From a virus: a DNA stretch of 64,000 nt. Positions 25,241-61,955 of this stretch are shown one piece after another. Both the position numbers and the translations under genes were made by a program. The DNA is taken from the IMG/VR virus record IMGVR_UViG_3300025810_000004, positions 1 to 64,000 of that record, one strand, 5' to 3'. Position 1 is the first letter of the stretch. Every line of letters begins with the position of its first letter. The notes under the pieces were generated by a model. It made no database searches and was not told where the DNA came from. It worked only from the letters and a program-made list of their open reading frames with translations.

Positions 25241-25930
25241 ATGAAAGAAAAGCACATAGGGGTGAGAATTAAGCAGTGCCTCGCTTTGGCTGAACTCAGC
25301 AATTGTTCTCGCAGAAAATTCGGTGCCATGCTGATTGACCCCAGCCGTAACGTCATACTTGCAGACGGATACAACGGTGGCCCCAGAGGAGGGGGGAAGC
25401 TGTGCAGGGGAACTTGGTGCGAAAGGGACGGGATTCAAGACGAAGACGTATCGATAGAAGTGGAAAACATACTTGAGTACCACGCTCCGAGGGTCCCTCC
25501 GTACAGGGCACAAGAGGTGAAAGTTCTCATTAAGGGGCAAAAGGAGTGGTCCAAGAAGGTAGTGAAAGCAGAGGGGAAATCCCAAGCCATCGAAGAGGCT
25601 ACAGCGGAAAAACTGAGGCTTCTGAAGAAGTACACCCCCATAGAGTCTGGAACCAGAACCGAGAGGGGATGCCACCACGCAGAGGCAAACGTCATATGCA
25701 ACGCCGCCGACAGTGGGGTTTCCACCAGAGGTGCGCTGCTCATAGTGACCGGGGAGCCCTGCCTTTCTTGCTCCAAATACATCCACCACTCTGGAATAAC
25801 CAAAGTCATATGTGTCGAAAACGGCTACAAGGGTGGAAAAGACGGCCCTGAGTATTTGGAAAGGCACGGAATAGAAGTAGAATACACCAAGGGGCCTGGA
25901 GACCCAAGAGAATGCAAACAAACCACCTGA
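25241..25930 (+). CDS. dCMP deaminase
   Basis: C.RR..GA, GYNG, HAE.N and PCLSC zinc motifs. Confidence 0.9.
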   Translation: MKEKHIGVRIKQCLALAELSNCSRRKFGAMLIDPSRNVILADGYNGGPRGGGKLCRGTWCERDGIQDEDVSIEVENILEYHAPRVPPYRAQEVKVLIKGQKEWSKKVVKAEGKSQAIEEATAEKLRLLKKYTPIESGTRTERGCHHAEANVICNAADSGVSTRGALLIVTGEPCLSCSKYIHHSGITKVICVENGYKGGKDGPEYLERHGIEVEYTKGPGDPRECKQTT

Positions 25931-26193
25931 ACTACATATTGGTCTCCAGCAACAACGGGTCTGAGGTGTTCCGCGAGAGCGTTCCCGTGTCTTCTACGAC
26001 CGTGGAAGACGTGTTCATTCTGGCAGCTCGGAAAGCCAAATTCCTCGGCGCTTCAACCCTGCAGGCAGAAAACACCCCAAGGGGTCTGGTGATAAGAGAC
26101 ATATCCGGGCTTACCGAGGTGGAGGTTTCCGTCATAGGACTATTTCTGTATAACGGGGACAAGACCGAACCGGTGAATTTGAACGAGGCTTGA
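25912..26193 (+). CDS. Hypothetical protein
   Basis: Fills the gap between co-oriented genes. Confidence 0.5.
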   Translation: MQTNHLNYILVSSNNGSEVFRESVPVSSTTVEDVFILAARKAKFLGASTLQAENTPRGLVIRDISGLTEVEVSVIGLFLYNGDKTEPVNLNEA

Positions 26194-28029
26194 ATGGAAG
26201 AACTGATAAGTTGGCTGAAGGACCTCCTTGCTCCAAAACAAGGAGAATTCCTGTATGCCGACTCTTCTCATGACTGGTCCTCCTACGAGGAGGGAACCTT
26301 CCACGGAATAGTGCTGGTTGGTGACAAAGACGACCATTCAGCTATATCAGAAGCCTACAGGGTGCTGAAGCCAGGGGGTCATCTGGCGCTGATATCTCCT
26401 GAAGAAGAACCGACAGGCCACAGTGGAGCTTGCCACGCAGAAGGGGTGGGATTCGAAGTCAGGGACAGCATTCTGGTGTTGTCCCAGCCCGAAGGGTTTG
26501 TGTACTCCGGGAAGACCACCACCAAGGAAAGAGAAGAAGGCTGCTATCTCGTAGAAGAGAAGAGATTCGCTATAAGCGGGGGAGCCAACAAGGTCATAGA
26601 GCGGGGGGAGGATTACGAAACCACCCAGTCCATAGGCATGAACAGGATCCCCAAGCGGCGGAACGTTCACCCCTGTCTTCACCCGGATGCACTGGTGATG
26701 ACGCCCCACGGCTACCGTCCGATCTCGGAGGTCACCGTGGGGGATAAGGTATACTCGGCAGACGGAAGGTTCCATGCCGTCGAGCATGTTTCTAGGCACC
26801 CATACACCAGTACCGACCTCTTTGAGATCAAGGTCACTGGGACCAACTATTCAACTCTCGCTTCCGACAATCACCCCTTCCTGGTGTACCGTCCCACCCG
26901 CAAGCGGAACTCCATAACAGGTGGTCAGGTTCTGTGGCTCCGCGCCGACCAGATGCAAAAAGGGGACTATACAATGACTCCGGATCTGGAGGAGCCCCCT
27001 CCGAACGAACACCTTGACCCAGAATGGTGGTTCGTGTTCGGTTTGTGGGTAGCCGAGGGTGTTGCCCAACGTGCAGGGCATGGTAGCAACGTATACCCGT
27101 CCTTCACCCTCCACGAAAAGGAAACGGACCTGATTGAGCGTATCAGGTCGGTGTTCTCGTCGGCGAACACAAGTGTGCATCCTAAGAAGGGCACGAAAGC
27201 CGTGCAGGTAATATCCTTCGACAAGGTGGCGGGGTCGCGGTTCGTTGAGTTGGCAGGTCGCGGGGCGGCGACGAAATGCCTCCACCCTTCTATTTGGACC
27301 CTTCCAAAGAACATCCGTGCAGCCATCCTTGATGGCTATATGGCCGGGGATGGTGGCAAAGTGCGCACTTATCTACAGGCCAAAAGTGTATCGCCCGATC
27401 TCGCGTCACAGATACGATTGCTTGCCGCGTCCGTGGGGTACAAGGCCAACCTGTTCACCTACGCCCCTGTAGAGGGACAAAGTATCGGTGATCGCTTGTT
27501 CAAATCTGTTCGGCAGACCTATCAGATCCGGCTCTACTCGGAAAACACGCGGAACGTCGCAGCGGGGTTACGCAAGGCTTCCCGACCTTATGAGATCGTC
27601 CACGACGGAGTGCGTTTCGTCTTGTCATACGTCAAGGCTGTGTCCCGTGTTCCTTATGAGGGGGACGTGGTCAACCTCTCCGTGGAAGGATCACCGACCT
27701 TCCAGACGGCTGTGGGTATGAGCCACAACACTGTGAAGCCCAGGGTTGTAATGCAGCACCTCCTGTCTGATGTGGATAAAGATTCAGGCCCCGTGGTGGA
27801 CCCCTTCATGGGTTCGGGAACCACGGGTCTGGCGTGTCTCAGGACGGGACACGACTTCGTAGGGATAGAGAGAGAGGAAGAGTACGCAAAGATAGCCGAT
27901 TCCCGAATCCGGCACTGGACCAACGCCGAAGAGGCTTGGAACCCTGTGGTGTTGGAGTCAGAAGTCGGTCCGGAGGCAGAGAGCACAGAAGTGCAGGAAG
28001 TCTCCTTCGAGGATTTCTTGGGGATATGA
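26194..28029 (+). CDS. Beta-class DNA methyltransferase, SAM-binding (C-terminal) part, intein-containing; lacks DPPY
   Basis: After intein removal: NVHP-TVKP...VVDPFMGSGTTG...FVGIE; N-part has RVLKPGG but no catalytic motif IV. Confidence 0.8.
   Translation: MEELISWLKDLLAPKQGEFLYADSSHDWSSYEEGTFHGIVLVGDKDDHSAISEAYRVLKPGGHLALISPEEEPTGHSGACHAEGVGFEVRDSILVLSQPEGFVYSGKTTTKEREEGCYLVEEKRFAISGGANKVIERGEDYETTQSIGMNRIPKRRNVHPCLHPDALVMTPHGYRPISEVTVGDKVYSADGRFHAVEHVSRHPYTSTDLFEIKVTGTNYSTLASDNHPFLVYRPTRKRNSITGGQVLWLRADQMQKGDYTMTPDLEEPPPNEHLDPEWWFVFGLWVAEGVAQRAGHGSNVYPSFTLHEKETDLIERIRSVFSSANTSVHPKKGTKAVQVISFDKVAGSRFVELAGRGAATKCLHPSIWTLPKNIRAAILDGYMAGDGGKVRTYLQAKSVSPDLASQIRLLAASVGYKANLFTYAPVEGQSIGDRLFKSVRQTYQIRLYSENTRNVAAGLRKASRPYEIVHDGVRFVLSYVKAVSRVPYEGDVVNLSVEGSPTFQTAVGMSHNTVKPRVVMQHLLSDVDKDSGPVVDPFMGSGTTGLACLRTGHDFVGIEREEEYAKIADSRIRHWTNAEEAWNPVVLESEVGPEAESTEVQEVSFEDFLGI
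26674..27729 (+). mobile_element. Intein with LAGLIDADG homing endonuclease (352 aa)
   Basis: Starts CLHPDALV, block B SDNHPF, LAGLIDADG-like GLWVAEG and LDGYMAGDG, ends SHN followed by Thr. Confidence 0.92.
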
Positions 28030-28030
28030 A

Positions 28031-28549
28031 ATGCAAAGGATAAGCATAAGAAGGGGAGACTCCTCCGAAGTCTTGGAGGGCATGGAACCGGAATCGGTAT
28101 GGGCCGTGGTATGCGACCCTCCGTATGACCTCGTTGCCAACAAGAAGGGTGGTAGCGGAACTTCATCCATAGATTTATCCACACCCTACGGACGATCCAG
28201 AATAGGAGTGGGGAACGGTTCCGGTGGCTTCATGGGGAAGCAGTGGGACTCGACCGGGATAGCGTTTTCAGTTGAATTCTGGCAGAAGGTACACAGGGTG
28301 CTGAAGCCAGGAGGGGTGCTGAAGACGTTCGGGGGTAGCCGCACCTTTCACAAGATGGCAAGGGCCATAGAGGAAGCCGGGTTCTCCGATATAAAGCTGG
28401 AGGCTTGGTTGTACTCCTCCGGGTTCCCTAAGTCTCTCAGTATTCCAAAGAAGATAGAGGACAAAGCTCTGTCCAAGGTGTGGGAGGGGTGGGGCACTGC
28501 CTTGAAGCCCTCTTGGGAACCTGTAATAGTGGCCAAGAAGCCACTGTGA
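28031..28549 (+). CDS. Beta-class DNA methyltransferase, catalytic (N-terminal) part
   Basis: GDS...VVCDPPY, FMGKQWD, RVLKPGG, WLYSSGFPKS, GWGTALKP.WEP; no FxGxG. Confidence 0.85.
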   Translation: MQRISIRRGDSSEVLEGMEPESVWAVVCDPPYDLVANKKGGSGTSSIDLSTPYGRSRIGVGNGSGGFMGKQWDSTGIAFSVEFWQKVHRVLKPGGVLKTFGGSRTFHKMARAIEEAGFSDIKLEAWLYSSGFPKSLSIPKKIEDKALSKVWEGWGTALKPSWEPVIVAKKPL

Positions 28550-29043
28550 GAAGCATAAAGCTGACAGAATCCGAGGACAGGGTTCCGGTGGGCTCAGAAC
28601 CAGAGTCCGTGTCCGTCATGGTCGAATTCGTACCAGAGGACTCCGACAACTGGGGAACACTCGAACCACTCCGGGGAACAACCTGGGAAGACGGGGTGAG
28701 TGAAGTAGACGCTGACTCGTTCAGTCACGCCCTGCACGGCAGACTGTCTCCCCTTCTGAAGAAGCTGGGTAGGAACCCCGTGTATAGTGCCCGTAGGGTT
28801 TCGGAACAAGAGGGGGTGTGCGACTTCAAGGGCAACTGCATAAAGTTCGACAAGAACCTGTGCAGGCCGGGAGGGGAGAAGGGAAACGGGTGGAGGAAGA
28901 AGTACGGCCCGTTCGACTGCTACCAGCCCCCTCTCCAAGGGGCCAGCATAGACGTCACCGAAACCTTTCTAAAAGTGGCTTTGGCATGGAAAGAGGGTAT
29001 TTTTGTCATAGTGGTGAAGGGTGAAGGATTCAACCTGAGGTAA
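28546..29043 (+). CDS. Hypothetical Cys-containing protein
   Basis: GTGA overlap with the upstream gene; four Cys in the C-half. Confidence 0.55.
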   Translation: MRSIKLTESEDRVPVGSEPESVSVMVEFVPEDSDNWGTLEPLRGTTWEDGVSEVDADSFSHALHGRLSPLLKKLGRNPVYSARRVSEQEGVCDFKGNCIKFDKNLCRPGGEKGNGWRKKYGPFDCYQPPLQGASIDVTETFLKVALAWKEGIFVIVVKGEGFNLR

Positions 29044-29045
29044 GT

Positions 29046-29612
29046 ATGAGACAAGTGGCTTGCAATAACTGTGGACTGGTTACGGAATTCCTGACCAGCG
29101 TTTGGAACGCCCAAGGGTCCACCTGTAAGGGCTGCGGTCACGTCATACAGCCACTGCTTGGGAACAAGGTCGCCCCAGCCTCGTGTGGCAACCAGATAGA
29201 GCTATCCCACATAAAGGGAAAGGGGATGGGGGTGCTCGCCACCAAGGACATAAAGGATGGGGAATTGGTCGAGCGGTGCCCTGTTTTCGTCCTGAATAGC
29301 ACGGACGAAACTCGAAATCACATAAAGGGTCTGACCCTATCTCCATACGAGGACGGAAGCAGAGAGATCAATATGTCTTTCATGCTTCTGCCATGGGTTG
29401 TGAATGGGAACAGGTGCATAGCTCTGGGATACGCGATGATATACAACCACGCCCCGGTCGAGAGGTCCAACGTGCTCTATTATCCCCACGTAGACCCGGA
29501 CTCCAGCAGGAGATTCCTGGACTTCTACGCCAAGAGGGACATAAAAGCCGGGGAGGAGCTTACACAGACCTACGCCCCCAACAACAGCCTGTGGTTCACA
29601 GCCAAGGGATAG
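29046..29612 (+). CDS. SET-domain protein-lysine methyltransferase with N-terminal Zn ribbon
   Basis: KGMGVLATKDI..GE, YNH, A.RDI.AGEEL..TY; CNNC and CKGC pairs. Confidence 0.85.
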   Translation: MRQVACNNCGLVTEFLTSVWNAQGSTCKGCGHVIQPLLGNKVAPASCGNQIELSHIKGKGMGVLATKDIKDGELVERCPVFVLNSTDETRNHIKGLTLSPYEDGSREINMSFMLLPWVVNGNRCIALGYAMIYNHAPVERSNVLYYPHVDPDSSRRFLDFYAKRDIKAGEELTQTYAPNNSLWFTAKG

Positions 29613-29615
29613 ACG

Positions 29616-30224
29616 ATGCTTGAGGTTATCACGGGCTGCATGTACAGCGGCAAGAGCGAAGAGTTGATCCGGCGTCTTCGGAGATGTCAGATCGCGGACC
29701 AGTTCACCCTTGTGATGAAGCCCGCGATTGACGACCGCTACTCTGCTGACTCCGTTGCGACCCACGTTGGGGGCTCGCTGAAAGCGGTAGCCGTCAAAGA
29801 CGTGCAGGATGTCAAACGTCTGCTCTGTGCACAGCCCTTCTTTATGACCGGGCAGGTCGTTGGTCTGGACGAGGTTCAGTTCCTTGACGACGAGATCGTG
29901 GACGTGCTGGAGGCCGAAGCAAACCGAGGTCGCCGAGTCATCGTAGCGGGCCTCGATCTCGACTCGGACGGCAATCCGTTCGGCCCGATGGCAAGACTTC
30001 TCGCGGTGGCCGACAAAGTGACCAAGTTGACTGCTGTGTGCGTGGCTCGCCTCTTCATCACCCGTGGCCTCCCGTCCGCGAGAGGTCAGGGTGATGTTTG
30101 CGGTAAGCCCGCCACCCGGTCGTACCGGTTGCCCAATCAAGACACAGGAGAGCAGGTGCAGGTCGGCTCCGACGGTGTGTACGAAGCTCGGTGCCGCGTG
30201 TGCTGGGCAAGGATGCAAGGATGA
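29616..30224 (+). CDS. tdk: Thymidine kinase
   Basis: G.MYSGKSEELIRR, IDDRY, DEVQF, AGLD.D...PFG, Y.ARCR.C. Confidence 0.93.
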   Translation: MLEVITGCMYSGKSEELIRRLRRCQIADQFTLVMKPAIDDRYSADSVATHVGGSLKAVAVKDVQDVKRLLCAQPFFMTGQVVGLDEVQFLDDEIVDVLEAEANRGRRVIVAGLDLDSDGNPFGPMARLLAVADKVTKLTAVCVARLFITRGLPSARGQGDVCGKPATRSYRLPNQDTGEQVQVGSDGVYEARCRVCWARMQG

Positions 30225-30607
30225 AGGTAGTCTATCTGCTTAGGAAGCCTCTTTCTGAAGGAACTATAACCGCAAACGTGTTGAAGCATGGGACTGGTGC
30301 CATCAACATTGAAGTTTGTAGGACCCCAACTTCGGACAGCCTCAACGGGGGAGCCTACGCTGAGAACCCCACTCACCGCGCTGGTGAGGACATGTGGACC
30401 AATGGTCGCAAAGAGGACACCAAATGCTTCCGACGTGGAAAGGAATACGCTGGGGAGTACCAGCAGCCCACAGGTCGTTGGCCGTCCAATGTCATCCTTC
30501 AACACCTCGACGGGTGCGAGGATTCGTCCTGCGATACGGGGTGTCCCGTAGAAGCCATGGGGAGTAACTCTCGGTTCTACAGACACATAGGGGGCTCCAA
30601 TGAGTAG
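30221..30607 (+). CDS. Middle segment of the same beta-class DNA methyltransferase family
   Basis: RKPLSEGTITANVLKHGTGAINI..CR, GRWPSNV and SRFY, which normally lie between the DPPY and FxGxG parts. Confidence 0.7.
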   Translation: MKVVYLLRKPLSEGTITANVLKHGTGAINIEVCRTPTSDSLNGGAYAENPTHRAGEDMWTNGRKEDTKCFRRGKEYAGEYQQPTGRWPSNVILQHLDGCEDSSCDTGCPVEAMGSNSRFYRHIGGSNE

Positions 30608-31421
30608 AAGCCTCCCAGACCTTTGGGACAGTTGTTACGAGGGCGAACACAGGAGAATCAAGTCCCCAGAGCAGTTCAAGAACGAATTCTGCAGCGCCTG
30701 CATGAATGTCGGCTGCAGAAACAGCAGGGGTGCAGGGACCAAGTGGAACCAGCGCATAATCTCACAAGAAGACCGCCTGCTGAACAACCCCCAGTTTGCC
30801 CCGGAAGACGCCGCCATAACGCTTGGACTTCCGGACTTCAAGAACATGATCCAAGAAGCCCTGAGGGTGGAAATATCCACCCAGAGGAATGACTGGGAGC
30901 CAGTATCTGACGCAGACGTAGGACGCGCAGCTGCTGAGATGCTGGGGATAGTGCAGCCCTCGGTGGCGAAACCCAAGGGTTTCGAACCAGAAGTTCCCCC
31001 GGAAGAGCCCCCTGAGCCGGAGGAAACGAGAGAGAAGCTGGGGCAGTGGAAGGTTAAGGGTGACTCTGTGGACGAACGGGGAAACCGCAGAACCTATGTG
31101 GTGACCCAGTACCAAGACGGAGAGTGGTCTTGCACCTGCCCGTCGAGGGAAAACCCCTGCAAGCACTCGCGTGGGATACAGAACAGACTCTCCCCCCAGC
31201 CCAAAGAGCCCGACTCGCCAAGGCCCGATCCCGTGGTTCCGAAGCCCGCCCCCCGAAGCTCTTTCCCCACCTCTATGAACACCCCTGCACCAGACGGTGG
31301 GGTTATGATAGGGGGAGGCCCCCCACCTGCTCCGAAGCCGCCAGTGGACCCCTGGGAGCCCACAGCGCCCAAAGTAAAGAAGATAGAGGTCGGCGGGAGA
31401 GTAAAGTTCAAAGGGAAGTAG
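30600..31421 (+). CDS. SWIM zinc-finger protein
   Basis: Y.V......WSCTCP....PCKH; Cys-rich N-terminus and Pro-rich tail. Confidence 0.75.
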   Translation: MSRSLPDLWDSCYEGEHRRIKSPEQFKNEFCSACMNVGCRNSRGAGTKWNQRIISQEDRLLNNPQFAPEDAAITLGLPDFKNMIQEALRVEISTQRNDWEPVSDADVGRAAAEMLGIVQPSVAKPKGFEPEVPPEEPPEPEETREKLGQWKVKGDSVDERGNRRTYVVTQYQDGEWSCTCPSRENPCKHSRGIQNRLSPQPKEPDSPRPDPVVPKPAPRSSFPTSMNTPAPDGGVMIGGGPPPAPKPPVDPWEPTAPKVKKIEVGGRVKFKGK

Positions 31422-60646: not shown

Positions 60647-60879
60647 TCCCTCCTGTTGTTCTGTCGGTATTTTCTGATTTTCCCCACGTCCAGACTGTGG
60701 TTTGGGACGGAGAAGTTGAGGTCAACGGGTCCAAAGTGGGGAACCCAGAAATCTTTGAACCATTGTGGGACTTCTTTGTCGAAACTCCGCACGTTCGTTA
60801 TGACCGTGCGGAGGTAAGCGCCGAATCCCCGACTGGTATACTCCCCAACCCCCTAACAACCTTAGGATCAGACTCATGA
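60643..60879 (+). CDS. Small hypothetical protein
   Basis: GTGA and ATGA overlaps on the two sides. Confidence 0.5.
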   Translation: MIPPVVLSVFSDFPHVQTVVWDGEVEVNGSKVGNPEIFEPLWDFFVETPHVRYDRAEVSAESPTGILPNPLTTLGSDS

Positions 60880-61955
60880 GTGGTAGAAAGAGAGAAGTGG
60901 TTGCTGTCATTGGCGCACAATTCGGCAGTGAGGGCAAGGGCAAGGTCGTTGACTGCCTTGTCAAGAACATGGACGGTGGAAACGGGTTCGACGTTGCCGT
61001 TCGGACTGGTGGTCCCAACGCTGGGCACACCTTCTACACCAAGGACGGCAAGGCGTGGGTCATGCAGTCCATCCCGTGTGCTTGGGAAGACCCCACCACC
61101 AAGCTCGTCATCGGTGCGGGTGCTCTGTTCGACCCGGAGCAGATCAACGCAGAGATCGACCGCATCGAGGCCGAATACGGTGAGGGCTACATCACCAACC
61201 GCCTCTACGTTGATCCCAACGCTGCCGTCATCGCTCAGGACCACCGCGACTTCGAGGGCGGCACCAAGGGTGACGCCCACGCCAAGATCGGCTCCACGGG
61301 CAAGGGGGTTGGTATCGCTCGCGCTGTCCATATCGCTCGTGGGCTCGGCTGGCACGGCGAACTCTCCACTGGCACCGTCGCTTCCCGTGGGCTGAAGGGT
61401 CGCTGGATCGAGGCCGACACCGTTGAGATCATCCAGCAGGGCGACCGCATCCTGCTGGAGGGCACCCAGGGTGCTGGTCTCTCGCTTCTCCACGGTCCTT
61501 GGCCGAAGACCACCAGCGCCGACATTGGTGTCGCCTCCATGATGTCCGAGGCCGGTGTCCCCCCCGGTGACCGCCCCGTGGTCGTCTGGTACGCCACCCG
61601 CACTATGCCGATCCGCGTCGCTGGTCCCTCCGGTCCTCTCCCCGGCGAAATGACCTGGGAAGAGGTGTCCAAGTCCGCAGGCCGCGTGGTCATCGAGCGC
61701 ACCACCGTGACCAAGAAGGTCCGCCGCATCGGTCGCTTCGATATGAAGGAGTTCAAGCGCTCTGTGGCCCGCAATGGTGCGGGCAAGGTGCTTTTGACCT
61801 TCTGCGACTACCTCGACGGCGGCAAGCCCGTCAATGAGGACGGATCCCTCGCTCCCGAGACTCAGGCTCTCGTGGACGAGATCAATGGGGTGTCCGGGAT
61901 CACTGTCGCCGGTATCAGCATTGGGCCGAAGGCCAGCGAAACCATCCTCTTTTAG
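60876..61955 (+). CDS. purZ0: PurA-family synthetase with PurZ0 signature (putative GTP-dependent 2-aminodeoxyadenylosuccinate synthetase)
   Basis: QFGSEGKGK (Ser where PurA has Asp), GGPNAGHT, EGTQG, RTMPIRVAG.SG, ERTTVTKKVRR, TFCDY; short 359-aa form. Confidence 0.8.
   Translation: MSGRKREVVAVIGAQFGSEGKGKVVDCLVKNMDGGNGFDVAVRTGGPNAGHTFYTKDGKAWVMQSIPCAWEDPTTKLVIGAGALFDPEQINAEIDRIEAEYGEGYITNRLYVDPNAAVIAQDHRDFEGGTKGDAHAKIGSTGKGVGIARAVHIARGLGWHGELSTGTVASRGLKGRWIEADTVEIIQQGDRILLEGTQGAGLSLLHGPWPKTTSADIGVASMMSEAGVPPGDRPVVVWYATRTMPIRVAGPSGPLPGEMTWEEVSKSAGRVVIERTTVTKKVRRIGRFDMKEFKRSVARNGAGKVLLTFCDYLDGGKPVNEDGSLAPETQALVDEINGVSGITVAGISIGPKASETILF

Follow-up and report, generated by a model that had tools for sequence, protein, structure and literature searches.

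We analysed the first 64 kb (positions 1 to 64,000, hereafter the window) of the IMG/VR virus record IMGVR_UViG_3300025810_000004, in which the parts of one DNA methyltransferase lie on three separate genes. The whole record holds 158,946 nt and is rated 36% complete by CheckV, and it is therefore a fragment of a very large, uncultured phage. The three genes encode a precursor (open reading frame A, ORF-A) in which a domain called N', an intein and the C half of the enzyme follow one another; the catalytic half (N); and a middle module (M) that occupies the position of the target-recognition domain (TRD). They are arranged in the order N'-intein-C / N / orfX / SET / thymidine kinase (TK) / M / SWIM (Table 1). 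As stated in the initial annotation of this DNA, all three frames are open and closely packed against their neighbours: a single base separates the ORF-A stop from the N start, and the ATG of M overlaps the TK stop as ATGA. The block around the methyltransferase genes is one of nucleotide metabolism and replication, and a DNA similarity search with positions 26000-31000 against GenBank phages returned no match. The split is real and conserved, and apparently unpublished.

Table 1. Methyltransferase parts and other annotated features of the window
Feature	Position	Strand	Remarks
dCMP deaminase	25241-25930		
N'-intein-C precursor gene (ORF-A), 611 aa	26194..28029	+	open frame; Pfam N6_N4_Mtase
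N-extein: N', F.Y..K....ER strand, ends in HP	26194..26673	+	
Intein, 352 aa, with LAGLIDADG homing-endonuclease domain	26674..27729 (ORF-A residues 161-512)	+	
C-extein: TVKP helix, DPFMGSGTTG, following strands, acidic/aromatic tail	27730..28029	+	
N gene, catalytic half, 172 aa	28031..28549	+	DPPY; Pfam N6_N4_Mtase
orfX, Cys-rich, ~150 aa	28588..29043	+	homologues in related loci
SET-domain protein	29046-29612		Pfam SET, E 2.6e-11
Thymidine kinase (TK)	29616-30224		
M gene, middle (TRD-position) module, 128 aa	30221..30607	+	
SWIM zinc-finger protein	30600-31421		
guaA		opposite	same block
Adenylosuccinate-synthetase homologue (PurA/PurZ-like)	60876-61955		PF00709, E 4e-46

The N protein carries the motifs DPPY, RVLKPGG, GFPKS and GWGTALKPSWEP and terminates at AKKPL, the motif IV of beta-class amino-methyltransferases, (D/S)PP(Y/F), being present as DPPY. 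It matched the Pfam family N6_N4_Mtase (PF01555) over profile positions 3-106 with 28.3 bits (cut-off 26.7) and PHROG 67 with an E value of 8e-25, in agreement with the earlier assignment of this gene as the catalytic part stopping at AKKPL. Free-standing N genes of four related loci (L005, L088, L106 and L109; L and P numbers are our handles for the sequences compared) were 51-58% identical to it and stopped at the same point, and the AKKPL end corresponds exactly to the point at which M begins in single-chain relatives. Many free-standing N genes (530-590 aa; L093, L095, L105, L110, L117 and L118) are longer by an insert of ~350-400 aa. It falls between positions that correspond to residues ~128 and ~148 of the window N, itself uninterrupted, and probably represents a further point of intein or endonuclease insertion in the catalytic half.

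The M protein begins MKVVYLLRKPL and ends just past SRFY, and its motifs follow in the order RKPL strand, GTGAINI, a variable stretch, GRWPSN, a Cys-rich HLDGC...C..GCPV and SRFY, so that the former description of this gene as a middle part starting at RKPL was borne out. In single-chain relatives M is located between N and C. An exhaustive protein search with M yielded 5106 matches at E<=1e-3; ~70 of the best 150 cluster representatives were free-standing M proteins of 100-230 aa aligned from residue 1, and other matches contained M repeated two or three times within one chain (N-M-M-C, N-M-M-M-C). Tandem arrays of differing M copies were found in L087, L106 (six M genes), L102 and L112; in both L087 and L084 the array consists of three distinct M genes that overlap as ATGA. 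Mean column identity was lower for M (25%) than for N (31%) or N'C (40%), and M has kept ends and motifs that flank hypervariable stretches. Because of this pattern and the tandem arrays, M is probably an exchangeable recognition (specificity) subunit whose variable stretches read the DNA sequence. Searches with M found no family in Pfam and chance-level matches only among PDB sequences. In PHROG 3008 ('DNA methyltransferase'), M corresponds to profile positions 3-82 and C to positions 152-214.

ORF-A carries F.Y..K....ER and DPFMGSGTTG, and its Pfam match to N6_N4_Mtase (65.1 bits, residues 509-568) covers profile positions 160-219. The C-extein comprises the motif X region (TVKP helix) and motif I (DPFMGSGTTG), ends in EDFLGI, matches PHROG 67 and 3008 ('DNA methyltransferase') and is 52-59% identical to the C halves of L088, L083 and L005. 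The FxGxG of motif I with a preceding HPTxKP helix is present in this half, with HP and TVKP joined only upon removal of the intein. The earlier reading of ORF-A as resuming with F.Y..K....ER, HPTVKP and DPFMGSGTTG was correct in its flanking motifs; it had overlooked the intein, and the contiguous HPTVKP did not stand. This insert makes up 58% of ORF-A and lies between HP and TVKP, which, therefore, form HPTVKP only after protein splicing. It starts with CLHP (Cys1, residue 161), has a block B of S-D-N-H at intein residues 64-67 with Ser at the position where Thr is usual, contains two LAGLIDADG-type motifs and ends in MSHN (His-Asn) before Thr513 (+1). HPTVKP is uninterrupted in L088, L005 and about 25 other N'C orthologues, in which the insert is absent from the conserved site, and the same insert occupies the same site in L083 (58-61% identical), L098, L106, L109, L110, L134, P0017 and the single-chain P0063. 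Pfam scores for the intein all fell below the curated cut-offs (given in parentheses): Hint_2 27.7 (28.4), LAGLIDADG_3 22.0 (22.5) and Intein_splicing 20.7 (35.8) bits; its endonuclease part matched PI-PkoII in the PDB with an E value of 6e-7. The product of this gene is thus predicted to require intein splicing before it can function, and spliced ORF-A would be a 259-aa scaffold subunit binding S-adenosylmethionine (SAM), compared with 219-300 aa for the intein-free N'C orthologues of 39 loci.

The N-extein begins with N', in which VLVGDKDD replaces CDPPY and is followed by RVLKPGGH, TGHSGAC and GFEVRD. The domain covers only the beta4-beta6 part of the fold and lacks DPPY with its following loop, and also the GWGTALKP hairpin. 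It had been described as a degenerate, DPPY-less copy of the N domain. The relationship held, since N' is 45-55% identical to true N domains of other loci over ORF-A residues about 37-100, including 52-96 (the RVLKPGG...GFEVRD stretch), whereas the label 'degenerate' did not, since N' has invariant residues of its own (H37, P60-G61, T74-G75-H76, E88, R90-D91 and E112-R113, with T-G-H-x-G-A). N' domains of the window, L083, L005 and L088 are 35-45% identical to one another, GDKD, GNPE or EPT stands in place of DPPY at the motif IV position, and L103 and P0014 each combine N' with a true N in a single polypeptide. The conservation pattern points to a conserved extra domain, neither debris nor a decaying leftover. 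Searches with N' found no family in PHROG and no match in 50,697 GenBank phage records.

Joining N, M (minus an 11-aa overlap) and the spliced C part (minus N') in silico produced a chain of 440 aa, which aligned end to end with a single-chain homologue, as had been suggested for checking the split: the 392-aa ORF of L004 gave one continuous BLASTP match (residues 4-402 to 8-366, 41% identity, E 9e-87), and a second continuous match covered residues 2-403 of the 450-aa P0101. No part was missing and none was duplicated except for short overlaps at the breaks (KKPL/RKPL and SRFY/GFVY), as expected from the complementary breakpoints claimed at the outset. The contiguous order of N, middle and C assumed for the single-chain family was likewise found in ~70 of 80 IMG/VR loci found with N, which encode single ORFs of ~390-520 aa with N, M and C matches in that order. 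On the window the motif order IV-VIII, TRD, X, I-III is distributed over three genes in the order C, N, M, so that collinearity is recovered only upon in-silico joining. By homology, then, the window enzyme is classed as a beta-class amino-methyltransferase in a split variant.

The same kit recurs in other large phages. A search of IMG/VR with an alignment of three N' sequences, where a single-sequence pattern had found nothing, identified 435 stretches encoding N', many of them on contigs of 140-618 kb. Among 59 loci analysed, N'C was a separate gene in 43 (4 with an intein), part of an M-N'-C fusion in 15 (1 with an intein) and part of an N-M-N'-C fusion in 1; these loci also held 76 N-only and 83 M-only ORFs. 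Where at least 5 kb was available on both sides (41 loci), N was present in 40, M in 39 and both in 38. One N'C gene can have as many as 6 N genes and as many as 7 free M genes beside it, and gene order varies among C-N-M (L088, L108, L109), N-M-C (L137-L141) and M-N-C (L129-L135). Fusions join the parts in several ways: M-N'-C in L005 (494 aa), M-N'-intein-C in L083/P0017 (822 aa) and N-M(-M)-N'-C in L103 and P0014. Because this kit recurs in dozens of other large phages, we regard it as a working modular enzyme rather than a broken gene. Other split forms occur in the ordinary, N'-less branch of the family, in which N-M and C are two genes or M-C proteins stand without N (L015, L050, L080; P0023). 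On the contig of P0008, M-N'-C comes after an MT-A70 gene and is itself succeeded by a zinc ribbon and then by three further short genes of N6_N4_Mtase type, one behind the other.

The neighbourhood is shared with relatives as well. L088 has N'C / N / M / orfX / SWIM (on the reverse strand), L109 and L106 have M / N'-intein-C (611 aa, as in the window) / N / orfX / TK / SWIM, and in L083 TK precedes the fused M-N'-intein-C. Since orfX, TK and SWIM recur in syntenic relatives, they constitute a conserved neighbourhood, and the gene that moves between relatives is M. The original gene order of C, N, three unrelated genes and middle was consequently right as to order, whereas 'unrelated' did not hold for orfX and TK; the SET gene matched no locus. 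Homologues of orfX adjoin methyltransferase parts in 18 loci (including L087, L088, L106, L108 and L109), following M in L087 and L088 and N in L109; orfX had no match in Pfam or PHROG, and it may be a further enzyme component or merely syntenic. The SET-domain protein, which has an N-terminal Cys-rich stretch and lies between orfX and TK, is absent from the syntenic L106, L108 and L109 and had no match in any locus compared. The dCMP deaminase upstream of ORF-A contains ~65 extra residues (about 64-127), its homologues in 21 related loci matching only residues 1-63 and 128-221.

Trees were made of N domains and of C halves. In the former, whose automatic fused/alone labels were partly wrong (e.g. 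L047) and which was read only for the immediate neighbours of the window N, that gene was nearest to two free-standing N genes, those of L108 and L106. In the C-half tree, the C halves of N'C type clustered, with 5 label changes compared with 34.7 for shuffled labels, and the window C was among them, nearest to L110, L117, L098 and L083. The nearest relatives of both N and C were thus split-type, mostly syntenic loci, and the different closest relatives that would have spoken against a common enzyme were not seen.

Because the window C subunit cannot be supplied unspliced, the complex was modelled with chains of L088, the intein-free relative closest to the window; an alignment was supplied for each of N'C, M and N, and N was treated as the partner. 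This modelling of the parts, proposed earlier as a check, gave an interaction prediction score from aligned errors (ipSAE) of 0.87 for the three chains, compared with 0.44 for the best of 3 controls; in the benchmark, 58 of 80 solved complexes attained the ipSAE mark, as did 2 of 110 mismatched pairs. Runs shared >=85% of contacts, and the predicted local distance difference test (pLDDT) value of the partner was >=76. Among the modelled contacts, those of lowest error are the following: the strand preceding DPPY (N 27-28) with that preceding DPFMGSGTT (C 178-180); the N-terminal N strand with C 199-202; N 83-87 with N' 69-77, packed helix-to-helix; and M 26-32 and 45-50 (the G.LNI and GRWP.N motifs) with N 180-185 (GWGTALKP). 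A reading of the motif strings indicated that the contacting residues are kept in the window proteins. The modelled N/C pairing corresponds to the canonical beta4-beta1 junction, where SAM meets motif IV, and such an ordinary pairing between the halves would make domain swapping unneeded. The model shows likeness rather than binding.

We consider it likely that the three products, after splicing, assemble into one beta-class methyltransferase, with M as its recognition subunit. N6-adenine is the most likely substrate because motif IV is DPPY. The hetero-oligomeric enzyme assembled in trans that the initial annotation had proposed agrees with the collinear and complete pieces, the conserved kit, the fusions, the split-type nearest relatives of N and C and a model that passes its controls. 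The ORF-A precursor would be translated and the intein would splice out, joining HP to TVKP and giving an N'-C subunit, whose C half (motif X, motif I FMGSGTT and strands beta1-3) would bind SAM. The separate N would supply the catalytic half (beta4 with DPPY to beta7), its beta4 edge docking on beta1 of C and so restoring the usual seven-stranded fold. M, in the TRD position, may clamp the GWGTALKP loop of N through G.LNI and GRWP.N and present its variable stretches to DNA, while N', tethered to C, may buttress N helix-to-helix in the manner of the inactive partner of class-beta dimers (PMC7544214). Since relatives have several N and M paralogues next to one N'-C gene, the family is probably a platform on which different N/M pairs confer different specificities and protect phage DNA from restriction.

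Several points weigh against this interpretation. The modelled chains come from L088 (45-56% identical) and not from the window itself; the pass may in part reflect fold memory, because the N:C interface copies solved single-chain beta-class folds; and the control in which N'C was replaced by an unrelated protein still scored 0.44. AlphaFold2 folded the window M alone poorly (78 homologues; pLDDT 64.7, predicted template modelling score [pTM] 0.34, mostly coil), which leaves its DNA-reading role without structural support. Substitution analysis gave dN values of 0.26-0.74 with dS either saturated or, where computable, 2.0-3.5, so that dN/dS is a bound only; the conserved split with dN/dS<1 looked for earlier was seen as conservation in dozens of loci with intact frames, while the ratio itself is not quotable. 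The 159-kb record (36% of the estimated genome) yielded a single N and a single M, and for that reason a platform is not visible in the window's own phage. Finally, the substrate would be uncertain if the genome uses 2-aminoadenine, given the PurA/PurZ-like gene.

Alternatively, N'-C, alone or together with M, may be a pseudo-enzyme complete in itself. N' would then occupy, in cis, the edge of C at beta1 and close an inactive SAM-binding module that serves, for instance, as a sensor of SAM, as a regulator or as a clamp-bound DNA binder, while N acts elsewhere or swaps in transiently. In favour of this, N' is conserved and retains strands and helices of the catalytic half, and L083 has M-N'-intein-C with no N within 18 kb. 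An AlphaFold2 model of L088 N'C alone, used only as a weak hint, had locally confident halves (pLDDT 72), and Foldseek aligned it to the whole beta-class enzymes M.BceJIV, CcrM, TTHA0409 and M1.HpyAVI over ~250 columns (E 5e-6 to about 1e-5). The template-modelling score was only 0.25 and pTM 0.51, however, and the two halves therefore do not adopt the packing of a normal enzyme; the strand paired with beta1 of C in the three-chain model is beta4 of N and not that of N', and N is nearly always present where the flanks are complete. N'-C also has no motif IV, so that alone it cannot methylate. We regard this alternative as improbable.

The enzyme could instead be active on a substrate other than normal DNA adenine, namely N4-cytosine, 2-aminoadenine (Z) or RNA, an alternative to which we assign a similarly small chance. 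N4-cytosine enzymes more often carry SPP[YF] as motif IV and DPPY is usual for the adenine type, which argues against it. Class-beta N4-cytosine and N6-adenine enzymes are nevertheless not cleanly separable by sequence (PMC7544214), and the window encodes the adenylosuccinate-synthetase homologue. Z retains the N6 amino group, so that its use would be a variant of the assembled adenine methyltransferase and not a contradiction of it. That the pieces are decaying, non-functional remnants of a single-chain methyltransferase broken by rearrangement and mobile elements is very improbable, although the family is an insertion hot spot (inteins, endonucleases and the long N-gene inserts in L093, L095, L105 and L118; PMC9957025) and gene order varies between relatives, because all three frames remain unbroken and lie close against their neighbours, the same break points occur in dozens of loci at 37-66% protein identity with catalytic and SAM motifs kept, dN is far below the saturated dS and N' has invariant residues of its own.

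The N'C proteins (window 27950-28026; loci L088-L149) end in an acidic linker and a short aromatic tail, SIFDLF, SLF, DLFG or DFFGL in relatives and EDFLGI in the window, with a nearly invariant terminal Phe. We take these tails to resemble those by which T4/RB69 proteins bind the sliding clamp, and also the QL[SD]LF motif of bacteria; clamp binding, if true, would couple methylation to replication. No sliding clamp (PF00712, PF09116) was found in the 159-kb record, which covers only 36% of the genome. A more far-reaching proposal, that one N'-C scaffold with a clamp-tail-like end, often with an intein, serves interchangeable N/M parts so that many motifs are methylated during replication, here perhaps in 2-aminoadenine DNA, is put forward tentatively, at somewhat less than even chances. 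As to origin, the Jeltsch model of circular permutation by tandem duplication was found insufficient: no cyclic rearrangement of N-M-C yields the fused order M-N'-C, and L103 and P0014 have both N and N' in the same chain.

A natural three-subunit enzyme, if true, would allow phages to diversify anti-restriction methylation cheaply, a free recognition piece, a free catalytic half and a shared cofactor scaffold enabling the swapping of small genes instead of whole enzymes. The intein would add a predicted post-translational requirement for activity. For targeted methylation, protein engineers would gain an adenine methyltransferase that evolution has already split, and hundreds of small, unannotated phage ORFs (M without a Pfam family, N' without a PHROG) would be explained. 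The small size of the parts and the specificity of the prediction make the idea directly testable.

DNA amino-methyltransferases are, by the textbook, single-chain or homodimeric enzymes. Our search of the literature on split, fragmented or multi-subunit phage amino-methyltransferases found no description of the present architecture, and a survey of jumbo phages mentions only ordinary and permuted methylases (PMC7824862). The nearest known proteins are the single-chain actinophage methylases of the mycobacteriophage family of Dorothy_75 and PopTart_63, in which conserved sites are known to be occupied by an intein and by other inserts (Gosselin et al. 2023, PMC9957025). They belong to the same homologous family, with N, M and C collinear at about 35-41% identity, but are single polypeptides without N', whereas here three genes and a dead extra half-domain are found. 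Separately translated fragments that form one fold, with breaks in or near the variable or TRD region, are shared with the natural two-polypeptide C5-methyltransferases M.AquI and M.EcoHK31I and with the engineered fragment complementation of M.SssI and M.HhaI (PMC3404938, PMC2836561). Short overlaps at the break aid complementation of M.SssI (PMC3404938, PMC2836561), and overlaps at the breaks, KKPL/RKPL and SRFY/GFVY, are present here too. M.AquI and M.EcoHK31I are, however, two-piece enzymes of the cytosine-C5 family, whereas the window enzyme is a three-piece amino-methyltransferase with a free TRD-position subunit and a pseudo-domain, and its pieces match only N6_N4_Mtase in Pfam rather than the C5 fold (motifs I-X, PCQ, ENV).

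The C5-methyltransferases of the Bacillus phages SPR, phi3T and rho11s are multispecific (tandem TRDs in the SPR type), and Type I HsdM uses a separate specificity subunit, HsdS. The tandem M repeats (N-M-M-C, N-M-M-M-C) and the free M arrays around one core are analogous to these systems, to which there is no sequence relationship; here the catalytic domain is also split and multiplied, and a specificity role for M is what we infer from its variable stretches. A division of labour is also found in the class-beta dimers METTL3-METTL14, ciliate MTA1-MTA9, EcoP15I Mod2 and CcrM (Woodcock et al. 2020, PMC7544214). The window enzyme shares with the METTL3-METTL14 type an active protomer and a partner with an eroded motif IV, N' being predicted by the model to contact N. 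METTL14 and MTA9, however, are complete folds on their own chains, whereas N' is a half-fold, with no SAM-binding half of its own, that is covalently joined to the SAM-binding half that N would use.

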